DNA of 64,000 nucleotides from Anaerolineales bacterium (GCA_020634935.1 JACKAT010000027.1:1-64000), one strand, 5' to 3'; shown: positions 16,195 through 36,199, numbered from the stretch's first letter. Numbers and translations are program-made. The notes: generated from the letters alone by a model not told the origin.

Positions 16195-16215
16195 ATAATC
16201 TCCTCACCTTTTGGT

Positions 16216-19200
16216 TTAATTATTTTGCACCAGAACGGGCAAATAAATTTTATGGCTGTTGGCCGACAAGTTTAACCCGCCTACGCCGTCGCCTTCAAAC
16301 GCACCGATGTCACAGGCCCCGGCGCGGGGACGAACAACACCGCGCTGGTCAGCCGTAAACGTGGTCCCGCAGCCGTTTGACCCGATAGGAATGGCATTAA
16401 TGGCCGGACTATCCGCCAGGAGGGCGCGGGTGCTGGTACTTCCCCCGTTGTTTTGCAAGGGTCCCAGGACCGGATTGAAACCGGCAATATCGCCAACACC
16501 AGACCCGACACAGGTGTTATCACTGTCGAGGTTGAAGCCGGCGGAGCTAATCCCGCCTGACCCGCCGCAGTTGCCGCCGGTAGGACTGTTGGCGACAATC
16601 GTATTTTGCAGCAGGAGCACACCGTCGATGTCGCTGTACAGGCCGCCGCCGGTCGTAGCGGTATTATTACTGAGGGTAGCAAATATCAGGCTGCTGCTGC
16701 CCGTATTGATATTGGCGATACCGCCGCCCAAACCAGCGCCGTTACCACCAGGTAGAGCGCCTGAGGACCCGCCGTAGATTTGGCCGCCGGTCCCGCCGGT
16801 GGCCTGGTTGCCGGACAACGTACTGTTGGTAATGGTTAAACCCGAGCCGCTTGAGTTGAAGATCGCCCCACCGTAGCCGCTGCCGCCGTCACCCCCGGCC
16901 GAACTACCATTGGCCGGCGTCCCGCCGCCCCTGCCGCCCGTCGCTTGATTGTCTGACAGGGTGCTGGCCGCGATTTGGATCGTCCCGGCCAGGTTGAAAA
17001 TCGCCCCGCCCAGGCCGGCTCCGCCGCCGCCGCCGCCGCCGCCGATCCCGGCCTGCACCACGCGATGGGAGCCGCCGTTACCGGCGCCAAAGCCGCCTTG
17101 CCCGCCGGGCAGCAGGGTTGAGGTGGAATTACTGGCCGCCCCGCCGCCGCCGCCGCCAAAGCCGCCGTTACCGCCGCGCCCGCCAAAACTCCCGCCGCCG
17201 CCGCCGCCGCCGCCATAACTGCCGTTACTGCCGTTGACGATGCCGGCGGAAGCCCCGTTGCCGCCCGCGCCGCCGGCCCCGCCGCCGCCGCCGCCGCCGC
17301 CGCCGCTGCCGGGACCGCCATTATTGCCATTACCGCCAATCGCTTGATTGGCGGATAACGTACTGGCGGCGATCGTGACGTTGCCGCCGTCATTATAAAT
17401 CGCTCCACCCAGGCCGGCCCCGCCGCCGCCGCCGCCGCTGCCGAAGCTGGCATTTGCCCCGCCGTTGCCGCCCTGGGCTTTATTCGCATTGAACACTACG
17501 CCGGTTATGGATAGTTGGCCTTGGCTGTAGATGCCGCCGCCCAAGCTGCTGTACTGGCCGGCCAGGCCGCCAATCAACGGCGGTGATGTTGGCGCACCGC
17601 TGCCGTTCGCGCCGCTCGATAGATTATTGGCAATCGTGTCGCCAGTCAAGACAATGGTTCCGGAATTCCAAATACCGCCGCCCGGCCCATTGGCTACATT
17701 GTTAGTGATGGTATTGACGCTAAATTGTAAGGTGCTGGCGCTGGCGTTATAAATGCCGCCGCCTTCGCCGCCGCTGAAGGAAAAAAGAGCCTGGTTGCTG
17801 TCGATGGTGGTTCCGGTTAAGCTCAAATTTCCAAAGTTGGCGATGCCCCCACCGCTGCCACCCTGAGCAATATTACCGCTAATGGTGCTGCTGCTGGCGG
17901 TCAGCGATCCATTATTTGTAATGCCGGCTCCGCCCAAGCCGGGCGAGCCTCCTTGTGAACCATTATTACGAACGGTGCTGGCCGTCAGGGTAAGCGTCCC
18001 GTCGTTGGCGATGCCGCCGCCGGTTACATAAGCTGTATTGCTATCAACCTGGCTGTTATTGGCCAGCGTCGCCGTGCCGGTGGATAAATTATAGATACCG
18101 CCGCCGGCTCCGTCTCCGGCCGAGTTGCCAGTGATCAGGCTGTTGATGAGGCTCAGGTTCCCGGCGTTGCTAATGCCGCCGCCGTTGCCAAAGTCCGAGT
18201 TATTGGTTACGGAGCTATCGAATAGTTGCAGTATGGCTCCGGCGGCGTTAAATAGGCCGCCACCGGCCGCCGCCGAACTGTTGGCTATAACACTAGTGCT
18301 GCTGTTGAGCATAACGATGCCGGCGGCATTGAAAATACCGCCGCCTTCGCCGGGGCCAGGTAAGACCGTCCCGGTGGCCTGGTTGCCGGTGATCGTACAG
18401 GCGTTGATGGTCAGGTTGCCGCCGTTGTTGTAAATACCCCCGCCTCGGGGTGTTCCGCTGGAGGTAAAAGCGGTATTGCCGCTGATAGTGCAGTTGGCTA
18501 AGATTAAAATGCTACCGCTATTAAAAATGCCGCCGCCCTGCACAGCTACACCGTTTGTTATCGTTACCCCCGAGATGTTGACCTGCTGACTGCTTTGCAC
18601 GGCAAAGATACGATAATTCCCGCCGCTGGCCCGCTGAATGTTCAAGAGATTAGGGCCAGGCCCGTTGATAAATATTTGAGTTATTAGCGCCGGCAGCGCC
18701 GAAGACAGGCTAATAGTGCCGGTTACACTGAAATTGATCGTCGACTCATCCGGGGCGGCGTTGGCGGCCTGAATAGCTTCGCGGAGACTGCAATGGGTTA
18801 GATCGCACACGCCGTCGTCTGTATCGGTTAAGGTATTAACGGTCAGCGGCGTCGGCGTTGGGGGTGGCGAGGTTGCTGTCGGGCCGACGCGTGGGGTTGG
18901 TGTTGGTTCGGGCGATGACGTCGCCGTGGGCTGTTCAGTGGGCGGCGCTGCTGTTGGGGGCGGCGGAGTTTCTTTCTCACTATTATTATTGTCGTTATTG
19001 TTATTGTCATTGGGGGGCGAGGTCGGCTGCGCCGGGATGACGGTCACGATGGCCGTTGGTTCGATGGTGGGCAAAACGGAGGGTTCGGGGGTAATGGCTG
19101 CGGTTGGTAAGATCGGTGTTTCAACGGTGGGAACCAGCGTTGAAATCGGCGTGGGCTGCTCGGTGCTGACGCCGGTGGCCCCCACCGTTGGGGCGACCAG

Positions 19201-19551
19201 CGTTACGCCGGCAATGGGTGTTGCTGCGCCACGTTCGGCCGGTGTGCTGCTGTTCTCATCATTAGTGCTGCGGGCCGGATGGTTCGGCCCGTTGGGCGAT
19301 GAGTCAGTCGGCAAGTGAAGGGTTGAGGTCGATGAATTCGGCGGGGCGTCACCCGCCGGGAAGGGTGTTGGCGTGAAGGTGGCCAGCGGCGTCACTACAA
19401 TAAAACGTTGAACCAATTCATCTTCCTGGCGTACGGAATTAACACCAATACCTCCGCTTGAGTTTGGCCCGAACGGATTTTGAAAACCAAGTCTACAGGC
19501 TAATGTCGTTAATAGGATTATAATTAAGCTAACCCAGCGTAATCGCGTCAT
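16216..19551 (-). CDS. Large secreted parallel beta-helix repeat protein with T/P-rich linker and extreme Gly-rich segment
   Basis: Signal peptide 'MTRLRWVSLIIILLTTLAC'. Motif 'CSLREAIQAANA' typical of beta-helix proteins. More than 30 repeats of the 'GGGI(Y/F)N...N' type. Poly-Gly/Ala segment over 16990-17300. 1111 aa. Confidence 0.6.
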   Translation of the reverse strand: MTRLRWVSLIIILLTTLACRLGFQNPFGPNSSGGIGVNSVRQEDELVQRFIVVTPLATFTPTPFPAGDAPPNSSTSTLHLPTDSSPNGPNHPARSTNDENSSTPAERGAATPIAGVTLVAPTVGATGVSTEQPTPISTLVPTVETPILPTAAITPEPSVLPTIEPTAIVTVIPAQPTSPPNDNNNNDNNNSEKETPPPPTAAPPTEQPTATSSPEPTPTPRVGPTATSPPPTPTPLTVNTLTDTDDGVCDLTHCSLREAIQAANAAPDESTINFSVTGTISLSSALPALITQIFINGPGPNLLNIQRASGGNYRIFAVQSSQQVNISGVTITNGVAVQGGGIFNSGSILILANCTISGNTAFTSSGTPRGGGIYNNGGNLTINACTITGNQATGTVLPGPGEGGGIFNAAGIVMLNSSTSVIANSSAAAGGGLFNAAGAILQLFDSSVTNNSDFGNGGGISNAGNLSLINSLITGNSAGDGAGGGIYNLSTGTATLANNSQVDSNTAYVTGGGIANDGTLTLTASTVRNNGSQGGSPGLGGAGITNNGSLTASSSTISGNIAQGGSGGGIANFGNLSLTGTTIDSNQALFSFSGGEGGGIYNASASTLQFSVNTITNNVANGPGGGIWNSGTIVLTGDTIANNLSSGANGSGAPTSPPLIGGLAGQYSSLGGGIYSQGQLSITGVVFNANKAQGGNGGANASFGSGGGGGGAGLGGAIYNDGGNVTIAASTLSANQAIGGNGNNGGPGSGGGGGGGGGAGGAGGNGASAGIVNGSNGSYGGGGGGGGSFGGRGGNGGFGGGGGGAASNSTSTLLPGGQGGFGAGNGGSHRVVQAGIGGGGGGGGAGLGGAIFNLAGTIQIAASTLSDNQATGGRGGGTPANGSSAGGDGGSGYGGAIFNSSGSGLTITNSTLSGNQATGGTGGQIYGGSSGALPGGNGAGLGGGIANINTGSSSLIFATLSNNTATTGGGLYSDIDGVLLLQNTIVANSPTGGNCGGSGGISSAGFNLDSDNTCVGSGVGDIAGFNPVLGPLQNNGGSTSTRALLADSPAINAIPIGSNGCGTTFTADQRGVVRPRAGACDIGAFEGDGVGGLNLSANSHKIYLPVLVQNN

Positions 19552-19930
19552 GAATGAGGGTTTTCCCTGAGACCATAGCTGTGGAATGTCGAAACCAGTT
19601 AGGAGTTACGCAAGTGGGTATAGAAAATTAGGTGACAACCACTTAAGTTTAAGCCAAATGGATGCGCGTTTTAATCGAGCCGTGAAGCAAAGCCGCCTTT
19701 TGCAGCGCGTAAATCCTATAAGTTAATGTGAGATCGAAATTAAACTGTCAGATTGAGATGGTTTTTGGCCGTGAGGTAAATAAGTTACCGGTAGTTAGGA
19801 TAAACGAATAAATCAACTTTGTCAAAGGTTAGGATGTTTTACTTTATAAGATCGGGCGGTTAAAATGGGCTTGCCTCCCATCCGGCCCGGTGCTATACTT
19901 TGATTTGAGGCTGCGGGGAATTAATTACCA

Positions 19931-20038
19931 GGACTTACGCAAATGCCCGATTTTGTAGCGTAAATGGCCAATTTGCGCCACGCGTCTGCCCAAAATAGGG
20001 AACAATTTAGCCAATTGTTCTACACTCTGCGTAAGTCC
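19931..20038. mobile_element. MITE-like element, family A, copy 3 (shares only the 12-bp TIRs; the interior is divergent)
   Basis: Termini 'ggacttacgcaa...ctgcgtaagtcc'. A partial family-A fragment is also present at about 19605-19640. Confidence 0.55.
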
Positions 20039-20081
20039 TGATTACGAACTTGTTTAACTCCGCTAACCTTCAAGACAGAAT

Positions 20082-21320
20082 ATGACAAATCTGTTAGGTG
20101 AAACAATAAGTGAATACCATTTAAAGGAAATGGTAGGCGAAGGCGGGATGGCCACGGTTTACAAGGCCTTTCAACCCAGCTTGAACCGCTGGGTTGCCGT
20201 TAAGGTGATGCACGAGCGCTATAGTGATCTCCTGCCTCGGTTTCAACGTGAAGCCAGAGCAGTGGCGCAGTTACGCCATCGAAATATTTTGGCCATCTAC
20301 GATTATGGTGAAGAAGCAGGTTACGCCTACATTGTTATGGAGTTTGTCGAACAGGGTACTCTCAAAGATCTCCTCACCGGCCAGCCGATGGATTGGGTTA
20401 AAGCCGTGGCCTTAGCCATTGCCATCGGCGATGCCCTGCAATACGCGCACCAGCATGGGGTTGTTCACCGTGATGTTAAGCCCTCCAACATTTTGCTGCC
20501 GTCCGTCGATTGGCCGCTGCTGGCTGATTTTGGCCTGGTCAAAATCAAGAGTTCGGAGGAGCAGTTAACCGACAGCGGTATGATCATTGGGACGCCGGAG
20601 TATATTTCGCCGGAACAAGCTTCCGGTGAGTCGGTTGATCATCGCGCCGACATTTATGCGCTGGGGGTGATTTTATTCGAGATGGTCACCGGCCGCCTCC
20701 CATTCGATTACAAAAACCTGAACCAAATTATGGTGGCCCACATTGCCGAACCGCCGCCCTCGCCCATCGAGTTGAATCCCGCCTGCCCGCCGCCCTTAGA
20801 CGCGGTTATCCTCAAAACTCTGGAAAAAGCGCCTGAGGACCGTTACCCGGATATGCGAGCTATGGTTGATGCGCTAAAAGGGGTGATTGGGTCTTCAACG
20901 CTGCCGAAAGGTAAAATTTTTGGCACGCAAGAGTTATCGCCTTATATTGCCGATTTACCGCTGCCTTACCTGGACCAGCCGGAGCCGATCGTCATTCAAA
21001 TGGCCAAAATTGTCCTTGCCGAACAAAATGTCATTATTGATGTGCCTTCGGACAAGCCCGAGGTTATCATCGGTAGAACGCACGGGGAGATCCGGGTTGA
21101 TATTGATTTGGGGCCGTATGGCGCGGCGTCGGCGGGTGTATCACGCAAACATGCCCGTTTATTACCCCAGGACAATGGCTGGCAGCTTGAGGACCTGGGC
21201 AGCCTTAATGGCACGTATGTCAATGAAATTAAGTTGAAACCGCAAAGCCCGTTGGCTCTAAAAAGCGGCGATGTTATTCGTTGCGGCCACTTACCCTTAA
21301 TTTTTAGAATCACGGTTTAA
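20082..21320 (+). CDS. Ser/Thr protein kinase with C-terminal FHA domain
   Basis: Kinase motifs 'HRDVKPSNILL' and 'DFGL'. The FHA signature is 'IGRTHGEIRVDIDL...VSRKHARL...GSLNGTYVN'. Confidence 0.85.
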   Translation: MTNLLGETISEYHLKEMVGEGGMATVYKAFQPSLNRWVAVKVMHERYSDLLPRFQREARAVAQLRHRNILAIYDYGEEAGYAYIVMEFVEQGTLKDLLTGQPMDWVKAVALAIAIGDALQYAHQHGVVHRDVKPSNILLPSVDWPLLADFGLVKIKSSEEQLTDSGMIIGTPEYISPEQASGESVDHRADIYALGVILFEMVTGRLPFDYKNLNQIMVAHIAEPPPSPIELNPACPPPLDAVILKTLEKAPEDRYPDMRAMVDALKGVIGSSTLPKGKIFGTQELSPYIADLPLPYLDQPEPIVIQMAKIVLAEQNVIIDVPSDKPEVIIGRTHGEIRVDIDLGPYGAASAGVSRKHARLLPQDNGWQLEDLGSLNGTYVNEIKLKPQSPLALKSGDVIRCGHLPLIFRITV

Positions 21321-21451
21321 TTACACATGGATTAATCAGCAAACAGGTGACTGGCACTTTTCTCCGCAATGGCATAGTTGAATGCTCCCGCCCCGTCTCA
21401 ATGGGAGTTACCTGAATACAGACGACCTATCAAATAGAAAAAAGGAATATC

Positions 21452-22006
21452 ATGACTTTCACTTGGGAAAAGTATTTGCAAGAAAAACTTATAGATGAGG
21501 AAACTCTGAGTATCCGTATTAAGGAGTTGGGCCGGCAGATTTCGCAAGATTATCGCCATCGAGATTTGCTGTTGATTTGTATTTTAAAGGGAGGGGTGAT
21601 GTTTCTGACCGACCTGATGCGCCAGATCACTATCCCCCATGAAATTGATTTTTTGGCGGTGTCCAGTTACGGCAAAGGGGTTAGACGCTCGACCGGTGTC
21701 GTCCGTATCGTAAAGGATTTGGATCAGCCGATCGCTGGCCGTGATGTTTTGATTGTCGAGGATATTGTCGACAGTGGACATACCTTACAATATATTACTC
21801 GCAACCTGGCAACCCGAGGGCCGGCCAGCTTAAAAATTTGCACCCTATTAGATAAAGCCGACCGCCGAGAAGTAGATATTGAGGTTGACTATGTTGGCTT
21901 TAACATTCCCGACAAGTTTGTTTTCGGCTTTGGCCTGGATGTTGATCAAAAATTTAGAGAATTACCGTTTATCGGGGTCGTTAAACCCGATGTTGTGATT
22001 GATTAA
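21452..22006 (+). CDS. hpt: Hypoxanthine phosphoribosyltransferase
   Basis: PRPP-binding motif 'VLIVEDIVDSGHTL'. Length 184 aa. Strong RBS 'aaaaaggaa'. Confidence 0.9.
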   Translation: MTFTWEKYLQEKLIDEETLSIRIKELGRQISQDYRHRDLLLICILKGGVMFLTDLMRQITIPHEIDFLAVSSYGKGVRRSTGVVRIVKDLDQPIAGRDVLIVEDIVDSGHTLQYITRNLATRGPASLKICTLLDKADRREVDIEVDYVGFNIPDKFVFGFGLDVDQKFRELPFIGVVKPDVVID

Positions 22007-22183
22007 GCGCCCCTGGTTAATTATTAATGTAATTGTCATTTGATCTCCATATAAACCAATTTAATCCTAAGATATAATTACCTCACCAACACATTTTGTA
22101 ACTTTCAGATAACAAGCACCTTAGCTCCGATAAAGTGCCTGTTATGTGATCTATTGAACTCAATTAACCCCAGAAACTCTTTT

Positions 22184-23638
22184 ATGCCGACCTACAAAGA
22201 TTATTATGCTATCTTAGGCATTACTCAAACAGCTACTGATAAGGATATTCGGCAGCATTATCGACAGTTGGTCCGCACCTATCATCCTGATGTTAATCCT
22301 GATTCTAACGCGGCTGAGAAATTTACGGAAATTCAAGAGGCTTACGAAACATTAAGTGATCCCCTTAGACGGCGTGAGTACGAGCATTGGCGATCGCATC
22401 AAGGGCTTGACCGCTCATCGGCGCTTAGCCTCCAAGTGATTACCAGCGAAAAATCCCTTCGCCCGCTCGATACGGAACAAGCCTTTTATGTGGTATTGAA
22501 TATCATGCCGACCGCCGATCTGCCCGCCGCTCGACTGCCCATCAATCTGGCTCTAGTGATCGATCGCAGCACCTCGATGCAAGGAAGACGCTTGCAGCAA
22601 GTCAAAGAAGCCATCCGCCACGTCATCGACGCCCTCCAATCGGAAGATTCACTGAGCTTGGTGACCTTTAGTGACCGCGCTCAGGTGTTACTACCCAGTC
22701 GGCGCAATATCGACAAAGCCATGGCCAAATCGATTGTTAGTACGATCCAGCCCAACGGTGGCACCGAAATGTTGACCGGATTAACCGCCGGTTTTGAAGA
22801 AATTAAACGGTATTGGAGCAAAACATCGATCAACCATGTCATCCTTTTAACCGACGGCCGCACGTATGGTGATGAAAGAGGCTGTTTAGAACGTGCACGC
22901 TGGGCCGGAGCTAACCAAATTACGCTAAGCGCTATTGGCATTGGCACGGATTGGAATGAAGATCTGCTCGATGAAATGGCGGCTGTTTCCGGCGGTACGT
23001 CGATTTATATCGACTCGCCGGATAAGATTCAAAATATTTTTGACCAAACCTTACGCAGCTTAGAGTCGGTGGTCGCTCGCCGGTTGAAAATGACGGTTAA
23101 TCCCAGCCCATACGTTCAACTGCATGAGGTCTATCAAATTAAACCTCAAATCAGCCGCTTTGATATTCATACCGCTACAGTAATGTTGGGTGCGTTGAGT
23201 ACTCATCAAGAGAAAAGTGTCTTGCTGGAATTTCGCATTCAGAAGTTGACCTTGGGCCAGCATCGGCTGCTGCGCCTGACCGTTGAAGGCGATATGCCCG
23301 GTCAATCTAACCATCGTCCCTGGGATTGGGTAGAATTGGTGGTTCATCTGCACGATACGGCTGAGGTGGCCGGTATTCCTTCCGCGGTGACTGACGTCTT
23401 AAAAAGTGTGGCCATCTATAAAATGCAGGAAAAAGTCCATTCTGACCTGACGGCCGGTCAGGTTAAAAGAGCCACCCAGCGCCTGGAAATTATCGCCACC
23501 CGGCTGCTCGACCTGGGTGAAGTTGAACTTTCGCGAGCGGCTTTACTGGAAGCCGGTCAACTGGCCCGTACTCAAACCCTCTCGGAAGAAGGTCGCAAAA
23601 AAATACGATACGGCACTCGGGCCTTGTCGTCGAGCTAG
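22184..23638 (+). CDS. DnaJ (J-domain) / von Willebrand factor A domain fusion protein
   Basis: J-domain 'KDYYAILGITQTATDKDIRQHYRQLVRTYHPDVNP'. The vWA region carries a MIDAS-like 'LALVIDRSTSM'. The track start at 22154 is a TTG; the ATG at 22184 gives a canonical J-domain N-terminus. Confidence 0.75.
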   Translation: MPTYKDYYAILGITQTATDKDIRQHYRQLVRTYHPDVNPDSNAAEKFTEIQEAYETLSDPLRRREYEHWRSHQGLDRSSALSLQVITSEKSLRPLDTEQAFYVVLNIMPTADLPAARLPINLALVIDRSTSMQGRRLQQVKEAIRHVIDALQSEDSLSLVTFSDRAQVLLPSRRNIDKAMAKSIVSTIQPNGGTEMLTGLTAGFEEIKRYWSKTSINHVILLTDGRTYGDERGCLERARWAGANQITLSAIGIGTDWNEDLLDEMAAVSGGTSIYIDSPDKIQNIFDQTLRSLESVVARRLKMTVNPSPYVQLHEVYQIKPQISRFDIHTATVMLGALSTHQEKSVLLEFRIQKLTLGQHRLLRLTVEGDMPGQSNHRPWDWVELVVHLHDTAEVAGIPSAVTDVLKSVAIYKMQEKVHSDLTAGQVKRATQRLEIIATRLLDLGEVELSRAALLEAGQLARTQTLSEEGRKKIRYGTRALSSS

Positions 23639-27337: not shown

Positions 27338-27670
27338 ATGAATTTCCCCCTCGACACGAACAATGACCAGGCCACGAGCTTATCCCCTCTCGACCACGAA
27401 GAACGTATTGTGGTATTACAACCGGTGACAATTCAAATATTTGATGGTCAAAACATCTACTCACCCAGTAAACTAAGGCCCATAAAAGAACTGCCTTATT
27501 CTGAGTTTCTTGAAAAATATGCTGACCAACCCAATCTGGTCAGAGTTTGCTTTGAGAAAACCAGTTGCTCTGACACGCTCTTTCAAAATTCAGAGGTTGT
27601 TACCGCTTATGGGGTTGGTACAGATTGTTGGTATATCGATATTACGGCTCTAAATCATAACAATGATTGA
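27338..27670 (+). CDS. Small conserved hypothetical protein (cassette 1), paralog of 31661..31981
   Basis: The shared block is 'Y.EFL..YAD.P...RVCF......S.TL...SEV.TAYGVG.DCWY' at about 50 percent identity with its paralog. It converges on the S24 gene with a 9-bp gap. Confidence 0.55.
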   Translation: MNFPLDTNNDQATSLSPLDHEERIVVLQPVTIQIFDGQNIYSPSKLRPIKELPYSEFLEKYADQPNLVRVCFEKTSCSDTLFQNSEVVTAYGVGTDCWYIDITALNHNND

Positions 27671-27679
27671 AGCTGCCTG

Positions 27680-29578
27680 TTAAATTCGCTTCACTCGAAT
27701 AAATCTTCCGGCTATAACCACCTCTGGATCAATAAAAAATTTTAATGGATTGGGAATTTCCCCGGTCCGTTTTTTTTGGTCATAGGAATCTTGGATAGCT
27801 GCGGTATCGACACCACTTTCCATAATAATAATATGTTCGCTGTTCTCATTGCCGGATTCAAGTCGTAAATGGCGTAGACTTTTATCATGTTTATTGATGG
27901 GGCGATACTTTTTTATGACCTCCAAGGGTGGTTGGTTGGCGTCTGTGTAGATGACAAAAGCCCCGATGTCACCATCATTTAGAGATGATTGCTGATGAAT
28001 CAAAACGGTATCACCGGAATAAATATGATAATCCTGCATACTATGGCCTACAATCCTCGCTCCAAAAAAATGTATAGGTTCTTGCTTCTCAGCCTGTTTG
28101 ATTATTAAATGATTCTGGACCTCGATATTTTCTCCTTGAATTAAACTTAATCCCGCCGCAACACTATTAGCCACAGGTATAGGCCAAATATAGCTTTTTA
28201 CAAACTCGTCTGATGACCCACTCCCTATGTGTAAAATAGGTTCAATAACTTCGCCACTAATGTAAACGTCATAAACATGTTTGATTTCAAAATGACGATG
28301 AGGAGTCTGATAGTAATTATTTAATCTCTCCCAATCTGTTTCATATTCCGCTAATACAATACAGGGTTGACTACTATCCAGTGGTTCTAAAAAGTAATGG
28401 TCGTCGGTTTTAGAAAATTTTCTTAAGCCTGCTTCAAGTTTGTCATTCTGTTTGGTCAAGATAAGGACGATTTTTCCATGCAGTTGGTGCGGCGAAACTT
28501 TTGCATCGATCAACAACCAATCACCCTGAGCCAAATCGGCTCCGATCGTCACTGCCGGGTCAATTTCCAAAATGTAGTCCGCATCCTCAACTGACTTTAC
28601 TTTGCCCGGATCAATCACCACCTTTTCAGGGGGAGAAGAGGTCTCAACCTCCTCGTAATCTTGTCCGGAGAGCAGATTGAGTCGGGTAATCAAGTGCCCC
28701 GTAATACAGCCTTGCCCTTTGGAAACCTCGAATAGCGGTAGCTCTCTTTCTTTAGCCGGTGTATCGGTTGATGATGGCGCTTTGGACCGCTTGCTTTTGC
28801 CCCCTTTTAGTGCTTCGATTTTATCCTGCTGTTCGCGGATTGCTTGAACCAATGCCTCTTTGTTAACTCTGGCAACGATGCTTTCTTGCAAGGCATTTCG
28901 TAGCGCTTGGTTGCAGGCATACTCGGCTTCGTCGATGTTCGATAATCTCTCGTTGATAATGGCTAGCCCTAGATAGGCTAACGATTTAAGTTGGAACCAA
29001 CTCGTGCCTTTAAATTGGTCTATGCTGTTCTCTAATAAGGTTTTTGCTTCTTGCCGGGATTGTTCATTGGTCTCAAAATTGGAGTTTAAAGCCAGGGCAG
29101 CCTGTAACAAATAAAATTTACCACAGCCGGTTTTAAGCTGATCTAGGTCGGTAATATATTCAATAACTTTTTTATCATCGGCGATTAACACTCTGTCAGT
29201 GTCCAGATCTAAATATATCTGGCTAATCAGTGAGCCAAGACGGCTCAGCTTTTTTGCAGTTACGGGATCGCTTTCCAGCCAAAATTCAGAGATTTTATAA
29301 ATATCTTGCAGATAATTATCAGAGGAAAGCGACTCATCGAGGCCGCTGTTCATCAAGCTGATTAAAAAGCTACCTGGCCGTTCAGAATTCAATGGAGGTT
29401 GATCCAAAGTATTTAGCTTAGCTCGAATCTCGGCGATTTTTTTTGTGGCTGTAATAAACTGTTCCTTAAGTTTGGCATCAGATGATATTTGAGATAACGT
29501 GTAATTCTGTTTAAGCTCAGTTAGTTGGTTAACCCCGTCAAGCGCCGCTTGTTTTAATTCATCCATCTGGTTTGTCAT
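27680..29578 (-). CDS. Giant LexA-like protein, cassette 1: helical N-region, inactive S24-like barrel, C-terminal active S24 (LexA/UmuD-type) autopeptidase domain
   Basis: The C-terminal 'IVGHSM...GDTVLI...GDIGAFVI...VIKKY' aligns with LexA 'GDSM...GDLL...VKR' (Ser/Lys dyad). The start is set at the ATG at 29578 ('MTNQMDEL', RBS 'ggtgagg') because an intrinsic terminator lies between 29605 and 29640. The track start is 29698. Confidence 0.7.
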   Translation of the reverse strand: MTNQMDELKQAALDGVNQLTELKQNYTLSQISSDAKLKEQFITATKKIAEIRAKLNTLDQPPLNSERPGSFLISLMNSGLDESLSSDNYLQDIYKISEFWLESDPVTAKKLSRLGSLISQIYLDLDTDRVLIADDKKVIEYITDLDQLKTGCGKFYLLQAALALNSNFETNEQSRQEAKTLLENSIDQFKGTSWFQLKSLAYLGLAIINERLSNIDEAEYACNQALRNALQESIVARVNKEALVQAIREQQDKIEALKGGKSKRSKAPSSTDTPAKERELPLFEVSKGQGCITGHLITRLNLLSGQDYEEVETSSPPEKVVIDPGKVKSVEDADYILEIDPAVTIGADLAQGDWLLIDAKVSPHQLHGKIVLILTKQNDKLEAGLRKFSKTDDHYFLEPLDSSQPCIVLAEYETDWERLNNYYQTPHRHFEIKHVYDVYISGEVIEPILHIGSGSSDEFVKSYIWPIPVANSVAAGLSLIQGENIEVQNHLIIKQAEKQEPIHFFGARIVGHSMQDYHIYSGDTVLIHQQSSLNDGDIGAFVIYTDANQPPLEVIKKYRPINKHDKSLRHLRLESGNENSEHIIIMESGVDTAAIQDSYDQKKRTGEIPNPLKFFIDPEVVIAGRFIRVKRI

Positions 29579-29604
29579 ATCTACCTCACCATAGTCATTG
29601 TAAA

Positions 29605-29640
29605 AAAACAGGCCGGGACCAGAAAGTGACCCCGGCTCAA
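29605..29640 (-). terminator. Intrinsic terminator-like hairpin between SPFH-1 and the S24-1 gene
   Basis: The minus-strand RNA reads 'gccgggg ucacuuucuggu cccggc cuguuuuuuua'. Confidence 0.5.
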
Positions 29641-29657
29641 TATAATTCGACCTTATG

Positions 29658-31292
29658 TTAGTCGTGCGAGGCCCCGTTGCCGTTGATTTCTTCTCCATGC
29701 CGGATCGGGATGCGTGGATAAAGCGCCGACGTTCTAACCAGACCTTCCATCTCTTTAGCCGAAGTCATCGCGCTAATCAAGCCGAGCGTGGCGTTGGAGA
29801 TTTGTTCCGGTTTCAAGGCTCCGTCTCGTTTCAATTCACGCAGTAACTCGCGGAAGAGTGCCGCTCTGGCTTCTCCTTCACCTTGACCATCGATAATGCG
29901 AGCTTGAGCTTTAGCTCTAGCAGCAATAACCGTCGCCTTGGCTTTCGACTCGGCGATCCGAGCATTGGTTTCCTCGATACGCTCTTCGATTAACGTATTG
30001 ACCTCTTTCTCAATTTTCTTCTTAATCTCATCGGGGAAAGTGATCTCGTTGAGATCGACCACCAGCAGTTTTACCCCTTTACCCAAGGCCGAGCCTTTGG
30101 TTTTCTCGGTCATATATTTTTCAAGCTCGGCAATCTTGCGCTCATTGATTTTAGCCGCCAGGTCTGCCCCTTGGCCTTCAATTTTGAACAAATCTTCGGC
30201 ATCAACGGCCATAATGGCATCCTTAACCGTGCTGGCCAGCGGGAATTTGACCGAGCCCCAAACGTCCGTGGCCCGACGAGCGGCGAGGATAGCCGTTCGC
30301 TTGTAGATTTTGTTATAGTCGTCGCCGACTTTCTCTTCTTTTTCCAATTCGGCTAATTCTTTTTTGGCCGAATTTAAGGTCTCTTCAGCGGTCTTTATTT
30401 CTTCTGGGGCGGCCCCGGTTGTTTTTAACTGATTAAAAGCTTTTTCGGCATCGGTTACAGCTTGCTGAAAACGAGCGAGCGTATCTTCGGCGGGTTCAAT
30501 TTGAGCGGCGTGCAGCACCTTAACCTCCAATGGTATTCGATCGCGGGTTAAAACATTGCTGAGCGGATTGACCGCACCCGCCGGCAGCAGCGGCAAAATG
30601 GCCTTGATCTGTTCCTGACGACCGAGCATCCACGAGCCGGCCCCAACCGCCCGGGTAATCAATCCTTGGCGCTGTAATACCACCACCTGCCCGATATGAA
30701 CCACCAGCCAGCCCGGACCACCAAAATTTTCCAACCGTTCGATATCATCCTCATTGCCTTTGAGTTTACCACCCCCATCTACCACCACCATAAAGTGACC
30801 AATCCCTAGGACGCTAAATAAGGTGTGGACAAAAGCATAAAAAAAGGCTCGATAATGAGGGCCGGTATGCCATTTGGAAACAACCACCGACGCCGCCGCA
30901 ATAACCAAGGTGAACGGTATTCCAACCGTGAGTATGGCGCCAACCACGCTAATTAAGAGGATGAGTAGAGCATCGCCCAGGGTTAGCATTCCTGTTGAGG
31001 TACCAGTTACAAACTCACGCAGCGCCGGGGTGAGGTAAATAAGGTGAATAATTAAAAATGCAGCCAAAAGATGGAGATATCCCAACAAAAACAGATTACG
31101 GCCTTGGTGTTTTTTGAAACCCCAGCCAATAAGGGCTAGAGTGGCTAAAAAGAAAAAAACGCTACCTATCACATAGTTAACGCTTGCAACTAAGCCGCTA
31201 ATGGCTAAAATAACTGCGAAAATTCCTAGTCGAATAAATGTTCCTCGCCCCGTCATGGTTTGTGGCTTTAAACGAACAAACTGTGTTGACAT
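29658..31292 (-). CDS. SPFH/band-7 (flotillin/YqiK-like) membrane protein with 4 N-terminal TM helices, cassette 1
   Basis: Four hydrophobic helices are followed by 'FGGPGWLVVHIG...VLTRDRIPLEVKVL'. The C-terminus is typical of SPFH: 'IEETNARIAESKAKATVIAARAKAQARIIDGQGEGEARAAL'. Start at ATG 31292 ('MSTQFVRLKPQTM') with a perfect RBS 'aggagg'. Confidence 0.7.
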   Translation of the reverse strand: MSTQFVRLKPQTMTGRGTFIRLGIFAVILAISGLVASVNYVIGSVFFFLATLALIGWGFKKHQGRNLFLLGYLHLLAAFLIIHLIYLTPALREFVTGTSTGMLTLGDALLILLISVVGAILTVGIPFTLVIAAASVVVSKWHTGPHYRAFFYAFVHTLFSVLGIGHFMVVVDGGGKLKGNEDDIERLENFGGPGWLVVHIGQVVVLQRQGLITRAVGAGSWMLGRQEQIKAILPLLPAGAVNPLSNVLTRDRIPLEVKVLHAAQIEPAEDTLARFQQAVTDAEKAFNQLKTTGAAPEEIKTAEETLNSAKKELAELEKEEKVGDDYNKIYKRTAILAARRATDVWGSVKFPLASTVKDAIMAVDAEDLFKIEGQGADLAAKINERKIAELEKYMTEKTKGSALGKGVKLLVVDLNEITFPDEIKKKIEKEVNTLIEERIEETNARIAESKAKATVIAARAKAQARIIDGQGEGEARAALFRELLRELKRDGALKPEQISNATLGLISAMTSAKEMEGLVRTSALYPRIPIRHGEEINGNGASHD

Positions 31293-31660
31293 ATTGCCTC
31301 CTATAGACAAAAAGTAAAAAGGCGCCGAACTCGGCAATCGCCGGTCACTGCGCTTCCTCTTAGCTTATTAATGATCTTCGGCTTTTGATTATGACAAGTT
31401 GTTATGTTAATATGATAACACATTTATTTAGAAAGGAGTCTAGTACCAAAGTACCATTAACAATCTGCGATTTCAGCGTAATGTTAAGAACTGTACGATA
31501 ACAGTACGATACCAATACGATAACTGAAGGACGCTCTTAAAAAGGTCTAAAATCTATTAGACATTTTTCAAAAATGGGCTATAATCACGTTGATCAAACA
31601 AATGTTCTAAAAACTCGTACACGTTTAACTGTTTACAACTTACCAGAAATCGGAGCAGCC

Positions 31661-31981
31661 ATGAGCCTTACCCTAAAAACCCCAGACCGTCACAGCAACC
31701 GCGCCAAATCCGGCAACCTCAGCGATCAGGTGGTCAATTTACAGCCGCTGGCGATGCGTCTGCCTAATCGCCACGGGATTTATTGCCCCAGCAAATTTGA
31801 GCCGAAGAAAACTATGACTTACCGTGAATTTTTGAAAAATTATGCCGATCATCCTCGGCGAATGCGGGTCTGTTTTGATGAGAACCCCACCTCTGAGACG
31901 CTGCTGGAGCGATCGGAAGTGATTACCGCTTATGGAGTTGGCTTGGATTGTTGGTATTGTGTGGATACACGTGGGGAATAG
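31661..31981 (+). CDS. Small conserved hypothetical protein (cassette 2), paralog of 27338..27670
   Basis: ATG at 31661 with RBS 'ggag'. It carries 'REFLKNYADHPRRMRVCFDENPTSETLLERSEVITAYGVGLDCWY'. Confidence 0.55.
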   Translation: MSLTLKTPDRHSNRAKSGNLSDQVVNLQPLAMRLPNRHGIYCPSKFEPKKTMTYREFLKNYADHPRRMRVCFDENPTSETLLERSEVITAYGVGLDCWYCVDTRGE

Positions 31982-32113
31982 CTGACGCCGCTCCTGGCGA
32001 GGGTTGCGTCTAAAGATATAAAAAGAAAACCACAAAGAACCTAAAGAAGTCGCCAAGGCCACGTAGAAATGGGGTGAACTTTGGGCTTCTTTGGGAACTC
32101 TGTGGTTAGATTA

Positions 32114-32141
32114 CAGGGGCGACCTTGGTCGCCCCTTTTGG
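32114..32141. terminator. GC-rich hairpin 'aggggcgacc tt ggtcgcccct' plus T-run between the convergent small-protein and S24-2 genes
   Basis: 10-bp perfect stem followed by 'tttggttt' on the + strand. It sits immediately 3' of the S24-2 stop. Confidence 0.5.
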
Positions 32142-32142
32142 T

Positions 32143-34287
32143 TTACAACTGAGCGACAGACACTTTCTTAATAAACTTGCCAGCAACACGCAGTTCGGCG
32201 TTAGGGTAGAAAGCTACGTTTTCCATCCGACCGGCGTAGAACCGTCTGATGCGCTCCAAACGAGCCTCGTCCGGCACAACCACCAGATGGGCGCCCGCTT
32301 GATTACTGGATTTCAAAAACCAATGCTCGTGGCCGGGCCGGTCGTAGAAATGGTAGGCTTTGATGACCTCAATGCTTTCCTCGGGTGTCTGGATGACAAT
32401 GGCGGCGATGTCGCCGTTCTCCACATGCTCTTGCTGGCGGATCAGCGCGATGTCGCCAGGCAAAATATCATCGTCAACCATGCTGTCGCCCTCGACCAGC
32501 AGACCAAAGTTGGCTCCGGCGCACTCCACCTCATCCCAATACAAATGCTCGTTGATGTCCTGAGGGGCGATGACCCCCAATCCGGCCGAGATTTGACTGA
32601 CCACCGGAATCCGGCGAATAACAGCGCTCGCTCGGCGGGCCGGTCCGGCTGCGGTCTGTTCCGGCATTAGCACCGAACCAGGTCGCACTACGCCGATCAC
32701 CGCGCCGGTCATGGCGACCTCAAAGGCCGGTTCGTGCTCGATTTTACCGCCCCATTGGCATTTCCGGTAGTAAGCCTCTATCGCTTCCACCGGCGCGCCA
32801 TAGCGATAGACAATCAATGACGCGTCCTCTGGGTGTTCGGCCCGTAAAAAGTAGTGGTCCGCTGCCTCGGTGGTTAGTGTTTTAAGCGAGGCTCGGAGCG
32901 TTTCGCCAATGATCAGAACGGCGATTTGCTTCTGACGGAGTTTAGCCGGTTTGTCCTCGGCGGCAATGAACAGCCAGTCGCCGGTCTGCAAACTGTGATC
33001 GGTTTCAACACCCGGTGGGAGCTGGACTATATAAGAGACCGCCCCCAGATCGATATCGGCTTTAGCCGCCAGCCGGTTCAAATCGAGGTTAAACTGGTCG
33101 GTGGTTAAGGGCGTCGGATCGCCGGATTCGTAATCTTTGCGGGTCAATAATTCTAGGCCCACCATACCTTGGCGGGCAGCGATCGTAGCTCCGGTCGCCA
33201 CGCTGAAGAGTTTAAAGCCGGCTTGAATTCTCGGGTTTAGACTCGTCCCGGGGTCAAACTGCCATAACTCCCCTAAGATGTCCTCTTCCAGTTCAACGGC
33301 TTGCTTTAGAGCTGTAACATCGACGCGGGCAGACATCGCTTCGTGGCGGGCGTAATCGCCGGCATCGATCAGCGCCTCAGCCGCATCATCGAGTTGGTTC
33401 AGCCGGCGCAAAGCGATAGCCTGGCCCAGGTAAGCCAACGCTAGCAGGTGAAAACAGCCCGAAGCCACATACTCATCTCTGGCTCTGAGAAAATGCTCGG
33501 CAGCCAATTCCAGATGTTCGCCTTCGTTGAGCAGAATGGCCGCCAGCAGCAGATGCAGCCGCCCTCGACTGTGTTCAAACGCCATCAAACCACCCGGATC
33601 ACTCAGGTTGGACAGTGAGACCAAGTACTCTTGTTCATCCAACTCAAGCAGCGCCTGCTCACAAACAATCGCCCCACCGCGAGGCCGGCAGACCATAAGC
33701 CGTTCAGCCTGTTCGAATGAGTCTTGCAGGTTGGCGATGACCGGCTCGGTGTCAAGTCCTTGGTCCAGTAGGTTGATAATTCGGCTGCCATCGGCTTGAC
33801 TCAAACAGTGATAGCTCTGATTTGGCACAAACCAGGCTTCCATCTGGCCCGGTTCTGGCTCAAGCAGCATGGTTTCGATACCGGGCAGCAGTGGCTCGCT
33901 GCCGGCTAAAGTTAGATGATCGTATAAGCGCTGGACGGCTGCTTCCGACAGCGTCCATTCGGTGGCTGCCCCCTCTTTGTAAACGCGCGTTTCCCGGAGG
34001 GCCTGGCGCGGTAGATCGAGCTTGGCAGCTAGGGCCTCCATCGTTATTGCGCGGCCGGCCGGGGTCAGGCCAGATCCGGCTTCTTTGGTCCAGTACAATT
34101 GAATTTGGGGTCGAAGATTTAGCTTTATCGTCGGGTCGCTAGAGACACGATCCTTGGTCTTAAGTGGTGGGTTTTTAAGCGGTAAAAAATTCTTTTCCGG
34201 CGACTCACCGAGAGAATAATACCGGCCGAATCGATGCAATTGACGGCGCTCTCGAGTCGCAACGTGATCTTGTAACATGAATCTCAC
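32143..34287 (-). CDS. Giant LexA-like protein, cassette 2: possible N-terminal HTH, TPR-like region, inactive S24-like barrel, active C-terminal S24 autopeptidase
   Basis: 'LVEGDSMVDDDILPGDIALI...NGDIAAIVI...EVIKAY' is a canonical S24 Ser/Lys dyad. The N-terminal 'GRAITMEALAAKLDLPRQALRETR' is HTH-like. It is a clear paralog of 27680..29578, sharing 'LAYLG.AI' and 'GDWL.I' blocks. RBS 'aggagag'. Confidence 0.75.
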   Translation of the reverse strand: MRFMLQDHVATRERRQLHRFGRYYSLGESPEKNFLPLKNPPLKTKDRVSSDPTIKLNLRPQIQLYWTKEAGSGLTPAGRAITMEALAAKLDLPRQALRETRVYKEGAATEWTLSEAAVQRLYDHLTLAGSEPLLPGIETMLLEPEPGQMEAWFVPNQSYHCLSQADGSRIINLLDQGLDTEPVIANLQDSFEQAERLMVCRPRGGAIVCEQALLELDEQEYLVSLSNLSDPGGLMAFEHSRGRLHLLLAAILLNEGEHLELAAEHFLRARDEYVASGCFHLLALAYLGQAIALRRLNQLDDAAEALIDAGDYARHEAMSARVDVTALKQAVELEEDILGELWQFDPGTSLNPRIQAGFKLFSVATGATIAARQGMVGLELLTRKDYESGDPTPLTTDQFNLDLNRLAAKADIDLGAVSYIVQLPPGVETDHSLQTGDWLFIAAEDKPAKLRQKQIAVLIIGETLRASLKTLTTEAADHYFLRAEHPEDASLIVYRYGAPVEAIEAYYRKCQWGGKIEHEPAFEVAMTGAVIGVVRPGSVLMPEQTAAGPARRASAVIRRIPVVSQISAGLGVIAPQDINEHLYWDEVECAGANFGLLVEGDSMVDDDILPGDIALIRQQEHVENGDIAAIVIQTPEESIEVIKAYHFYDRPGHEHWFLKSSNQAGAHLVVVPDEARLERIRRFYAGRMENVAFYPNAELRVAGKFIKKVSVAQL

Positions 34288-34564
34288 TCTCCTGGATTAC
34301 GCTTCTAAAAACAGTTGGTTGTGTGGTTGGATATAGGGTGGGGTAGGGGTTAGGTGGTTAATGGCTAACCACCTGGCCGCCTATCGTCTCATCCCTTAAT
34401 CCCACTCATATTTCTTTCTCTTCATTGCCCTAATTGGGGCTTCCGAATTTGATTGGATAATAGATTGGAGCCACAAAATTGCTTGGTGATTACCTGATTA
34501 ACTTGTTGCTTTACAAAATAGAAGCAGCCCTATATCACTATATTATCAAATGATAGCGGTAGAC

Positions 34565-36199
34565 CTATTCTTCTCCATGCCCGTTCCCATTTTCGGCCAT
34601 CAGTTCCGGGTAGCGGCGGTGTAAGAAAGACGATGATTTGAACAGGTCCTTCATTTCCTTCACCGACGTGGTAGCGCTGATTAGACCGAGCATGGCACTG
34701 GCAATTTGTTCTTGAGGTAGTCGTTCGCGTTTTAATTCACGGAGGATTTCGCGGAAGAGAGCGGCCCGAGCCTCGCCTTCACCTTTGCCAGCCATAATAG
34801 CCGCTTGCGCTTTGGCTTTGGCAGCGATGATGTTGGCTTTGGCCTTGGACTCGGCAATGCGCGCTTCGGTTTCCTGAATTTGCGCTTCAATAAGCGTTTT
34901 AACTTGTTGTTCGATTTTTTCTTTGAGTTCTGGGGGGAAAGTGATTTCAGCGATATCGACGATAAGCAGTTTGGCGCCTTTACCCAGGCCAAAAGCTGTC
35001 GATTTTCGCGTAACCAAATCTTCTATTTCTTTGATCTTACGTTGATTGATTTTAGCTTCTAAGTCGCCGTTATCTTCCCTAATTTTGAACAGATCTTCGG
35101 AGTATTCAGCCATGATGGCGTCTTTGAGATTATTGATAACGGCAAATTTGACGGCGTTGTAGGGGTCCGGCCCTCGCAGGGCAGCTACACGAGCGGTGCT
35201 TTCGTAAATCTGGAATAGTTCGTCGCCGATGATTTTGTCGGTTTCCAGCGCTTGCAGCTTCTGCCGAGCCGACTCAACGGCCTGCTGAGCGGCATCAATG
35301 GCCGCGGTTGGCATACCTTCAAGGGTCAGATTGCGCAGTTGGGCTTCGGTGCTGCTCAACTCGTGCTGTAACCGGGTTTTGGTATCAGCGGCCGGTTCTA
35401 GTCGGGCAGCATGTAAAACCGATACGTTGAGGGCAATCCGGTCTCGGGTTAGAACATTCGCAATGGCCTGGACATTGCCTTTAGGACTCAAAGGCAGTAT
35501 GGCCATGATCTTTTCGCCCCGTTTCAGCATAACCGTACCGGCTCCCACCACGCGAGTGATCTTGCCCTGAATATGGAGGGCCACCGCTTGTTGCGGGTAA
35601 ACGGTCAACCAGCCCGGCCCGCCGAACTTTTCCAACCGCTCTTTGCCGTCTTGATGGCCTTTTATCTCGCCGTCTTCAACCACAACCACAGAATGAATTA
35701 TCGCCAGAATAGTACACAGAGTATGAGTGAACGCGGACATGGAGGAACGATCCGGCCCCACGTGCCATTTAGAGACAACTGCCGCTGCCGCCGCCACAAT
35801 TAAGCAGAAGGGGATGGTTACCAGTATTACGGCGGCTACAAGTCCAATAACGGCTGCAGCAAAAATTAGCGATACCCCTTGCTCCAAGGTTAAGGTACCT
35901 GGATTAGTGCCAACGGCAAATTGACGAACGGCTGGGTTGGCTAGCGCCATTCCAAAAAAGATAAGACCAACAACCACATGAGCATATAATAACAGCAAAA
36001 GATTACGGCCCTGATAGGGCTTAAAACCGGCATATATAAAAATTAATGAAGCGGTTAAAAATAATATGGCTCCGATTAAGCCGTTAAAGGTAGCAGCTAA
36101 CCCGCTGGCCACTACGATTCCCATAAAAACTAAGACCCTCAGTACCTTACTTGTTCCCTTCATAGTTTGGGGTCTGAGCATAATGGTGTGTACCGACAT
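34565..36199 (-). CDS. SPFH/band-7 (flotillin-like) membrane protein, cassette 2
   Basis: Paralog of SPFH-1. N-terminus 'MSVHTIMLRPQTMKG'. 4 TM helices. 'FGGPGWLTVYPQQAVALHIQGKITRVVGAG'. C-terminus 'AESKAKANIIAAKAKAQAAIMAGKGEGEARAALFREIL'. Confidence 0.7.
   Translation of the reverse strand: MSVHTIMLRPQTMKGTSKVLRVLVFMGIVVASGLAATFNGLIGAILFLTASLIFIYAGFKPYQGRNLLLLLYAHVVVGLIFFGMALANPAVRQFAVGTNPGTLTLEQGVSLIFAAAVIGLVAAVILVTIPFCLIVAAAAAVVSKWHVGPDRSSMSAFTHTLCTILAIIHSVVVVEDGEIKGHQDGKERLEKFGGPGWLTVYPQQAVALHIQGKITRVVGAGTVMLKRGEKIMAILPLSPKGNVQAIANVLTRDRIALNVSVLHAARLEPAADTKTRLQHELSSTEAQLRNLTLEGMPTAAIDAAQQAVESARQKLQALETDKIIGDELFQIYESTARVAALRGPDPYNAVKFAVINNLKDAIMAEYSEDLFKIREDNGDLEAKINQRKIKEIEDLVTRKSTAFGLGKGAKLLIVDIAEITFPPELKEKIEQQVKTLIEAQIQETEARIAESKAKANIIAAKAKAQAAIMAGKGEGEARAALFREILRELKRERLPQEQIASAMLGLISATTSVKEMKDLFKSSSFLHRRYPELMAENGNGHGEE

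Follow-up and report, generated by a model that had tools for sequence, protein, structure and literature searches.

Tandem cassettes of an SPFH membrane protein, a large LexA-like autopeptidase and a small convergent protein in an Anaerolineales bacterium: a candidate conflict system

A stretch of 64,000 nucleotides from an Anaerolineales bacterium (GCA_020634935.1 JACKAT010000027.1:1-64000), hereafter the window, contains two adjacent cassettes at 27338-31292 and 31661-36199. Each consists of three genes, encoding a membrane protein of the SPFH family, a large soluble protein ending in a LexA-like S24 peptidase domain (the giant) and a small protein transcribed convergently towards the giant gene. 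The components are numbered 1 and 2 after their cassettes and their coordinates are collected in Table 1. The results make it probable, if only by a modest degree, that the cassette is a three-component conflict system (anti-invader or programmed-death) that is scaffolded on the membrane and triggered by autoproteolysis, and that is so far specific to uncultured Anaerolineae-type Chloroflexota. In the best reading of the data the giant is not a transcriptional regulator.

An earlier note on this DNA had placed six open reading frames (ORFs) in this arrangement and described all three components as paralogous between the copies. The ORFs were recovered with the same coordinates and strands, and the copies share 51% identity for the SPFH proteins (E 1e-164), 27% over ~586 columns for the giants (E 3e-41) and 42% for the small proteins (E 1e-31). 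Judged by their sequences, the two copies are probably old or were independently acquired, with no recent duplication. The start codon chosen for giant1 is supported by homologue P0046, which begins MTNQ; the database version of giant2 starts 9 nucleotides later, yielding 711 residues compared with 714 for the ORF. The guanine-plus-cytosine (GC) content of giant1 and small1 together (27338-29578) is 41.5%, below the 5th percentile of 1.6-kb windows, compared with 49.5% for SPFH1, 56% for giant2 and a mean of 52.5% for the window, which suggests that giant1 and small1 were acquired or exchanged apart from the rest of cassette 1.

The order of the genes is conserved. Twenty-five related loci were gathered by exact-protein look-up and by pattern scans, the scans with narrower alignments yielding 6 genome loci and 3 metagenome loci, and were then searched with hidden Markov models (HMMs) of the three families. 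An SPFH gene followed by a giant gene was found in 16 cassettes on 13 independent contigs (two each in the window, L002 and L009, and one each in L001, L003, L005, L011, L012, L013, L016, L019, L020 and L021), and every giant with readable upstream DNA (16 of 16) was preceded by an SPFH gene of the same family. The gaps between the two genes are often 9-40 nucleotides, indicating that they form an operon. In at least 13 cassettes a gene of the small family is convergent with the giant gene and abuts or overlaps its 3' end; the cassettes of L013, L016 and L020 are without it. The tandem doublet is also found in L002 and L009. The earlier note had taken failure to find the SPFH-S24 adjacency in any other genome as the sign of chance juxtaposition; the adjacency recurs, and a chance origin was rejected on the strength of the conserved gene order. 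An identity correlation in the manner of a mirror tree was also calculated for the SPFH, giant and small proteins and was dominated by close orthologues.

The named sources are all metagenome-assembled genomes of Chloroflexota (Anaerolineae, Anaerolineales and Caldilineaceae); the window's contig belongs to one of Anaerolineaceae, matched at 100% by P0001 and P0042. HMMER searching of 1.84 billion representative proteins returned 59 giant-family proteins at E ≤ 1e-30, results indicating that the family is rare. It was not found in viral, phage or plasmid collections beyond generic LexA fragments, the plasmid search with giant2 returning LexA-like fragments only; a scan of viral contigs for the small protein and a phage search with SPFH1 gave no match. 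A prophage or mobile element was rejected since there were no viral matches and the chromosomal context is syntenic. The content of a given chromosomal site varies among relatives. Between genes for a Lactamase_B protein and seryl-tRNA synthetase lie a variant with a KAP NTPase in L003, a variant with EAD7 in L021 and an SPFH gene only in L007, and the contents of the site occupied in the window likewise differ among the window, L002, L011 and L017. By analogy, such swapping of cassette variants at one site would be typical of conflict loci. The SPFH gene is split into two overlapping ORFs in L001 (8057-9680) and broken into three fragments in L011 (13016-14157), a sign that cassettes are still decaying or being turned over.

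The giant is a member of the S24 family as judged from its fold, catalytic dyad and predicted cleavage site, all read from the sequence and its model. Pfam Peptidase_S24 matched giant1 at 7.4e-14 and giant2 at 1.8e-13, in agreement with the S24 Ser-Lys C-terminus that the earlier note had recognized. The AlphaFold2 (AF2) model of giant2, with a mean predicted local distance difference test score (pLDDT) of 80, consists of a disordered segment (residues 1-59), an alpha/beta domain without known family (60-165), helical repeats (166-345), a beta domain (359-535), a disordered linker (540-556) and a second beta domain (557-714). The helical repeats are of the TPR type and resemble RapH, RapI and PlcR as well as TPRs that bind C-terminal peptides. 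Comparison of residues 405-545 with 556-714 of giant2 by hhalign gave a probability of 97.4% (E 1.6e-11), revealing the first beta domain to be a duplicate of the S24 domain, hereafter pseudo-S24, in which Val replaces the nucleophilic Ser and the position of the Lys is kept. An intramolecular pseudo-dimer thus results, its two halves joined by the linker in which the cleavage site lies. Neither the giants nor the small proteins have a predicted transmembrane segment.

The catalytic dyad is Ser602/Lys643 in giant2 and Ser513/Lys556 in giant1. The Ser (G-D/H-S-M) and the Lys (V-I/L-K) are kept in both giants of the window and in 23 of the 30 aligned members. Ala568-Gly569 of giant2 and Ala475-Gly476 of giant1 align with the Ala-Gly of Thermotoga maritima LexA (3k2z), a site conserved in 24 of the 30. 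The Ser is lost in 7 members and the Lys in 6, and 6 of the 7 Ser-less members are also without Ala-Gly. Joint loss of the nucleophile and the Ala-Gly is what cleavage in cis would be expected to leave, and shows that the giant of certain lineages is not catalytic. Short family members of 341-355 residues have TPRs and a single S24 domain, and membrane-anchored stand-alone S24 proteins belong to the same subfamily as the giants.

The earlier note had also viewed the giant as a regulator in the sense of LexA, a view the results do not support. Family searches and the AF2 model revealed no DNA-binding domain in the giants, and the N-terminus of neither window giant had a helix-turn-helix (HTH) match at E ≤ 1; the constant part is instead the TPR domain and the tandem S24 pair. 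The NCBIfam lexA model scored 42-47 bits on the giants, through the C-terminal part only, against a cut-off of 111, and the scores were also far below the NCBIfam cut-off for UmuD.

The N-terminus preceding this constant part is variable. In about a third of the representatives the conserved core is reached at position 2-19, and in the others only after 40-270 extra residues. Pfam identified TIR_2 at the N-terminus of P0045, P0047, P0056, P0066 and the giant of L019, Trypsin_2 in P0063, and EAD7 in at least seven members (P0050, P0054, P0055, P0057, P0061, P0072 and an L009 cassette). In the one TIR domain that was checked, that of P0045, alignment to the AbTIR NADase showed that the Trp and the catalytic Glu are kept. 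A helical hairpin forms the N-terminus of P0049, P0068, P0070 and P0078, and the N-terminus of giant1 is a divergent form of it (hhalign against the hairpin class 64%, E 6e-5); an EAD7 identity for this region was rejected (hhalign probability 0.3%). The N-termini of the window giants could be assigned to no family in Pfam, NCBIfam, PADLOC or PHROGs. Exchange of modules is seen in the 80%-identical relative L002, where cassette 2 is 84-89% identical to cassette 2 of the window and a cassette with a TIR-bearing giant occupies the position of cassette 1.

The next-closest S24 relatives carry TRADD-N with HNH or EAD7, domains that are discussed in PMC8195603. In conflict systems of multicellular bacteria, matching EADs occur on neighbouring proteins (PMC7159879). 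At one locus, L021, a giant with EAD7 (3486-5501) is followed by a 175-residue EAD7 protein (5603-6130), which agrees with the rule of EAD coupling given by Kaur et al. 2020 (PMC7159879). The earlier proposal of an anti-phage or envelope-stress switch thus gains support in the conflict direction from the TIR, trypsin and EAD7 N-termini of the relatives. Within the window itself, a 614-residue protein encoded at 4999-6843 on the plus strand begins with the hairpin module of P0049, P0068, P0070 and P0078 (MSQQDEVEKLIHIHQRRLQKLKEQQAMFGASVDPKIPLEIEDIEAKLDEL; E 3.5e-20), followed by a transmembrane segment and C-terminal TPRs, in a gene of 46% GC. By analogy with EAD pairs, giant1 and other hairpin-type giants might have it as a homotypic partner.

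The membrane protein of the cassettes is, by sequence, a divergent member of the SPFH family. Pfam Band_7 (PF01145) matched SPFH1 with 29 bits against a cut-off of 23.6 (E 1.4e-6). SPFH2 has no Band_7 match of its own; its assignment follows from the 51% identity to SPFH1 and from other members of the family that are positive for PF01145. The family profile gave weak matches to HflK and HflC (E 0.036-0.14), the only solved SPFH relatives detected by sequence, through an Ala/Glu-rich helix that aligns with the C-terminal helix of HflK. The earlier note had described a protein with four transmembrane segments, and four hydrophobic segments (22-40, 43-60, 67-86 and 109-137) are indeed conserved and free of charge in 26 homologues. 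A further hydrophobic stretch, 152-171, is charged in 17 of the 26 and probably belongs to the soluble domain. The loops obey the positive-inside rule for a topology with the N-terminus inside, which together with the four segments and a soluble 152-171 gives the SPFH domain a predicted position in the cytoplasm, on the same side of the membrane as the giant. A topology with five transmembrane segments and an external SPFH domain was rejected in view of the charges in the fifth segment.

The SPFH proteins paired with giants end in a characteristic tail, with an acidic-x-x-Asn-Gly motif 3-12 residues from the C-terminus (EEINGNGASHD in SPFH1 and AENGNGHGEE in SPFH2; elsewhere EETNGVKKN, EKTNGARE, EETNGSQR and QSNGKAV). 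Of the 14 giant-paired proteins examined, 13 have the Asn-Gly motif and one has it in part; none of five SPFH paralogues without a giant has it (L006, L007, L017b, L022 and L023). The motif and the peptide-binding type of TPR suggest that the tail serves as the peptide for docking, or else the S24 groove may take it as a pseudo-substrate or substrate. This tail, like the internal S24 duplication and the variable effector N-terminus of the giant, had been missed in the earlier description of the proteins.

The small protein belongs to a conserved family with ~75 core residues, the motifs LQP, YSPSKL, YAD-P and TAYGxGLDCWY, and two conserved Cys. No match was found in Pfam, NCBIfam, PADLOC or PHROGs, and the protein has neither a signal peptide nor a hydrophobic N-terminus. 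A role as regulator or safety catch is a guess. In a consensus scan, the two best sigma-70-like matches of the region (11 of 12 positions) were each located upstream of a small gene. Three head-to-tail 11-nucleotide repeats at 31494-31531 (TACGATAACAG, TACGATACCAA and TACGATAACTG) lie between the divergent SPFH1 and small2 genes, ~30 nucleotides upstream of a strong promoter-like site at 31558-31585. Nothing but these local repeats emerged when the intergenic regions were searched for shared operators, and they are absent from the related loci. Of two hairpins found by consensus scans (Table 1), the one between SPFH1 and giant1 may be an attenuator that lowers expression of the giant relative to the SPFH scaffold, and the one between small2 and giant2 is a candidate bidirectional terminator. 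Rfam gave no match anywhere in the window.

These features can be assembled into a proposed mechanism. SPFH proteins generally form oligomeric membrane scaffolds, and the cassette protein, anchored by four transmembrane helices with its SPFH and coiled-coil part in the cytoplasm, would do the same. The soluble giant would be held at this scaffold, most likely through contact of its TPR domain or S24 groove with the acidic-x-x-Asn-Gly tail of the cognate SPFH protein. A signal would be sensed by the fast-evolving TPR/pseudo-S24 module or relayed from the scaffold, upon which the cleavage-site loop would enter the Ser/Lys active site. LexA cuts itself at Ala-Gly, and the giant would do so at A568-G569 in copy 2 and at A475-G476 in copy 1. 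The cut would part the catalytic S24 domain from the N-terminal portion, freeing or activating the N-terminal module. Among relatives the module is a TIR NADase, a protease of the trypsin type or an adaptor, EAD7, that recruits a separately encoded effector; in the window it is the uncharacterised alpha/beta domain of copy 2 and the helical hairpin of copy 1. The convergent small protein would be the constant third partner, most likely as the regulator or safety catch considered above.

A more specific version of the mechanism is offered only tentatively and is itself doubtful. In it, a cytoplasmic SPFH cage holds the LexA-like autopeptidase through the Asn-Gly tail, which serves as docking peptide or pseudo-substrate. 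An event that disturbs the membrane scaffold (phage entry or lysis proteins are examples) would free the tail, license self-cleavage at Ala-Gly and unleash the swappable effector, be it a TIR NADase, a protease or effectors recruited by EAD7. Sensing of membrane perturbation by the cassette is purely conjectural.

Several observations weigh against interpretation of the cassette as a conflict system. The two giants of the window have no recognisable effector domain, and about a third of the family is without an N-terminal extension, so that in those members the effector may be the SPFH/transmembrane protein or the small protein instead. The few members without Ser, Lys and Ala-Gly indicate that catalysis is not always required. 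The topology with four transmembrane segments and a cytoplasmic SPFH domain was derived from hydropathy and charge counts alone, the association of tail and giant may be partly phylogenetic, and the AF2 model of the small protein, built from 4 sequences, has a pLDDT of 48. In addition, no member of the family comes from a cultured organism, the cassettes lie among housekeeping genes with no obvious defence island, and neither PADLOC nor PHROGs lends support to the cassette proteins.

Some of these points also speak for a housekeeping membrane-protein module resembling stomatin/NfeD (STOPP) or HflK/C-FtsH, in which no invader is involved and the S24 domain acts in trans, trimming the SPFH tail at or near Asn-Gly or cutting membrane substrates and so controlling assembly of the scaffold under envelope stress. 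A known operon combines an SPFH gene with the gene of a Ser-Lys dyad protease, which cuts its SPFH partner in the C-terminal region (PMC4208085, PMC2636767), and the conserved tail of the giant-paired SPFH proteins, the housekeeping neighbours and the absence of effector domains from the window copies are all in keeping with such a module. This reading is nevertheless fairly unlikely. It accounts poorly for the TIR, trypsin, EAD7 and HNH/TRADD-N N-termini, for the very narrow phyletic range and for the presence, absence and module swapping of cassettes among close relatives. Furthermore, no NfeD domain was found in the six window proteins, and the co-variation of the giant's Ala-Gly with Ser/Lys points to self-cleavage.

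Another explanation leaves the giant as an effector or regulator and differs from the conflict-system interpretation mainly in the trigger: the S24 domain would be activated by RecA on single-stranded DNA, as in LexA, UmuD and lambda CI, making the giant part of an SOS-type response to DNA damage with which the SPFH protein is merely co-expressed. To our knowledge the RecA filament is the co-protease of all characterised S24 autopeptidases, and it is a possible trigger here, the Ala-Gly, Ser and Lys geometry being retained, structures 8trg and 8gms appearing among the fold matches of the giant and family members being labelled 'LexA' automatically in IMG. A DNA-damage signal leaves unexplained, however, the strict coupling to a membrane SPFH protein and the tail motif; the family-specific insertion and tandem pseudo-domain are unlike LexA, and the searches for an HTH or other DNA-binding domain were negative. 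An SOS-type sensor is considered unlikely. The resemblance of the TPR domain to RapH, RapI and PlcR, together with a small gene adjoining the giant gene, would also suit an RRNPP-like switch in which the TPR binds a signalling peptide derived from the small gene product and thereby controls autocleavage (compare Rap/Phr, PlcR/PapR and arbitrium). This is very improbable: the small protein has ~108 residues, with no export signal or hydrophobic N-terminus, its conservation extends along a ~75-residue, globular-looking core and not a short C-terminal peptide, and three cassettes (L013, L016 and L020) do without the gene.

Table 1. Features of the two cassettes, of related loci and of the remainder of the window.
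Feature	Coordinates	Strand	Remarks
SPFH2	34565-36199	-	544 residues; four N-terminal transmembrane helices (predicted), SPFH domain with inserted coiled coil, Ala/Glu-rich C-terminal helix
giant2	32143-34287	-	714 residues, soluble; Pfam S24 match; domain boundaries from AF2 model
giant2 TPR-like helical domain	33253-33792	-	residues 166-345
giant2 pseudo-S24 domain	32683-33213	-	residues 359-535; internal duplicate by hhalign
giant2 active S24 (LexA-like) domain	32146-32619	-	residues 557-714; Ser602 at 32482-32484, Lys643 at 32359-32361
giant2 predicted self-cleavage site Ala568-Gly569	32581-32586	-	just past disordered linker (540-556)
small2	31661-31981	+	106 residues, convergent
SPFH1	29658-31292	-	544 residues; Pfam Band_7 match
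giant1	27680-29578	-	632 residues, soluble; Pfam S24 match
giant1 domains (approximate)			helical hairpin 1-62, TPR-like ~66-258, pseudo-S24 ~280-452, S24 464-632
giant1 predicted cleavage site and catalytic residues	28151-28156 (Ala475-Gly476), 28040-28042 (Ser513), 27911-27913 (Lys556)	-	
small1	27338-27670	+	110 residues, convergent; stop 9 nucleotides from giant1 stop
Terminator-like hairpin	29612-29636	-	in 79-nucleotide SPFH1-giant1 gap; stem of 10 base pairs (7 GC pairs), then T-run; consensus scan
GC-rich hairpin	32115-32136	+	between convergent stops of small2 and giant2; consensus scan
conv94 genes	L006 11330-11614; L007 3135-3401; L011 14627-14827; L017 3114-3395; L022 1796-2089; L023 1684-1974		
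Downstream transmembrane family	L006 12368-13333; L009 9815-11173; L016 3201-4172, 4349-5281; L020 10477-11562; L021 6790-7911, ~7945-8860		
Zinc-ribbon Ser/Thr kinase	window 13768-16194		
ORF without Pfam match	window 16216-19551		1111 residues
Kinase-FHA protein	window 20082-21320		
DnaJ-vWA protein	window 22154-23638		

A second type of cassette consists of an SPFH paralogue without the Asn-Gly tail followed by an unrelated convergent gene for a helical protein of ~95 residues ('conv94'), with no S24 giant. The conv94 gene directly follows the SPFH gene in L007, L017, L022 and L023, a TPR-only gene in L006 and the degraded SPFH gene in L011, and in L017 and L011 a cassette of this type stands at the position of the window's cassette 1. 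Homology of conv94 to the small family was rejected (hhalign probability 0.4%). Additional genes accompany individual cassettes. In L003 a gene for a 395-residue KAP-family P-loop NTPase (9737-10924), matching phrog_8614 (E 1.7e-35), lies between the SPFH gene and a giant without extension. In L020 the trypsin-type giant is followed (9407-10422) by a multi-transmembrane protein of 133 residues, homologues of which are encoded upstream of a split SPFH gene in L009 and L010, and by a protein of 205 residues composed of one transmembrane helix and a stand-alone S24 domain that belongs to the giant subfamily (E 8e-68) and has both Ala-Gly and GDSM intact. A recurrent family of 320-450 residues, with several transmembrane helices and a C-terminal domain, is encoded downstream of the cassettes of several lineages, at times by tandem genes; the L020, L021 and first L016 members have a zinc ribbon at the N-terminus. 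The family has no member in the window and could be an accessory membrane effector. The window does contain a cluster of signalling-type genes at 13768-23638 (Table 1). Modules of the vWA and kinase/FHA kinds are common in conflict systems too.

If the conflict-system interpretation is true, LexA-type self-cleavage would be a general route for release of toxic effectors, reaching beyond transcription factors and UmuD, and the SPFH scaffold would gain a concrete signalling client, while what most prokaryotic SPFH proteins do at the molecular level is only vaguely defined. The effector/adaptor conflict systems linked to multicellular bacteria would have a further member, one specific to the lineage of filamentous Chloroflexota. 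The compact three-gene system is amenable to heterologous expression, and catalytically dead giants, TIR giants, SPFH cassettes without giants and SPFH proteins with or without the tail provide natural controls.

Comparison with known systems delimits what is distinctive of the cassette. With LexA, UmuD and lambda CI (MEROPS S24, PF00717) the giant shares the S24 fold, the Ser/Lys dyad and the Ala-Gly site. It differs in having no N-terminal winged HTH, in being 3-4 times larger, in the Ser-less S24 duplicate, TPR domain and variable effector/adaptor N-terminus that precede the catalytic domain, and in its obligatory pairing with a membrane SPFH protein. HflK/HflC-FtsH shares the SPFH scaffold with an Ala/Glu-rich C-terminal helix, and there the SPFH assembly gates a protease. 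HflK/HflC, however, face the periplasm and enclose a membrane AAA+ metalloprotease, whereas the cassette SPFH domain is predicted to be cytoplasmic and its partner a soluble, self-cleaving serine protease.

In gene arrangement the cassette is like stomatin/NfeD, a conserved operon (PMC2636767) in which a gene for an SPFH-family scaffold adjoins one for a serine protease with a Ser-Lys dyad; in the Pyrococcus pair PH1511/PH1510 the protease cleaves the C-terminal region of stomatin (PMC4208085). That protease is a membrane protein of the ClpP/S49 fold with a C-terminal OB-fold, whereas the giant is soluble, has the S24 fold and carries its own cleavage site; the SPFH partner has one transmembrane helix or hairpin in stomatin/NfeD and four helices here. 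Pfam and NCBIfam searches of the six window proteins gave no match to NfeD or ClpP-class families, and the cassette, having by sequence neither fold, is not a member of the stomatin/NfeD operon family. The earlier note, in stating that no comparable system was known, had overlooked this pair, albeit one with a Ser-Lys protease of a different fold; its statement otherwise stands insofar as no description of the cassette was found in the open-access literature, where full-text searches for SPFH/Band_7 with S24, for anti-phage and for TIR with defence returned nothing relevant. The null result it anticipated with PADLOC was also obtained: PADLOC-DB 2.0 gave no match for the giants or small proteins and only coiled-coil-type noise for the SPFH proteins (LmuB 4e-4, JetC, AbiB), none of it significant.

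With the EAD systems of Kaur, Burroughs, Iyer and Aravind (eLife 2020, 2021) the cassettes share a variable N-terminal effector or adaptor fused to a constant module, TPR repeats, filamentous hosts and, at L021, an EAD7 partner encoded by the neighbouring gene. An autopeptidase is proposed as the activation step there as well, including in EACC1/EACC2, and is a caspase in those systems and S24 here; S24, LexA and this SPFH pairing go unmentioned in both eLife papers. The cassettes differ in having no NTPase core (STAND, MoxR-vWA or GTPase): Pfam and NCBIfam found no NTPase domain in the SPFH, giant or small proteins, the KAP NTPase gene occurring at L003 only, and the constant partners are the SPFH protein and the ~108-residue protein. 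Overall, the cassette combines two kinds of system that are already known, conflict systems with swappable effectors and pairs of an SPFH protein with a protease.

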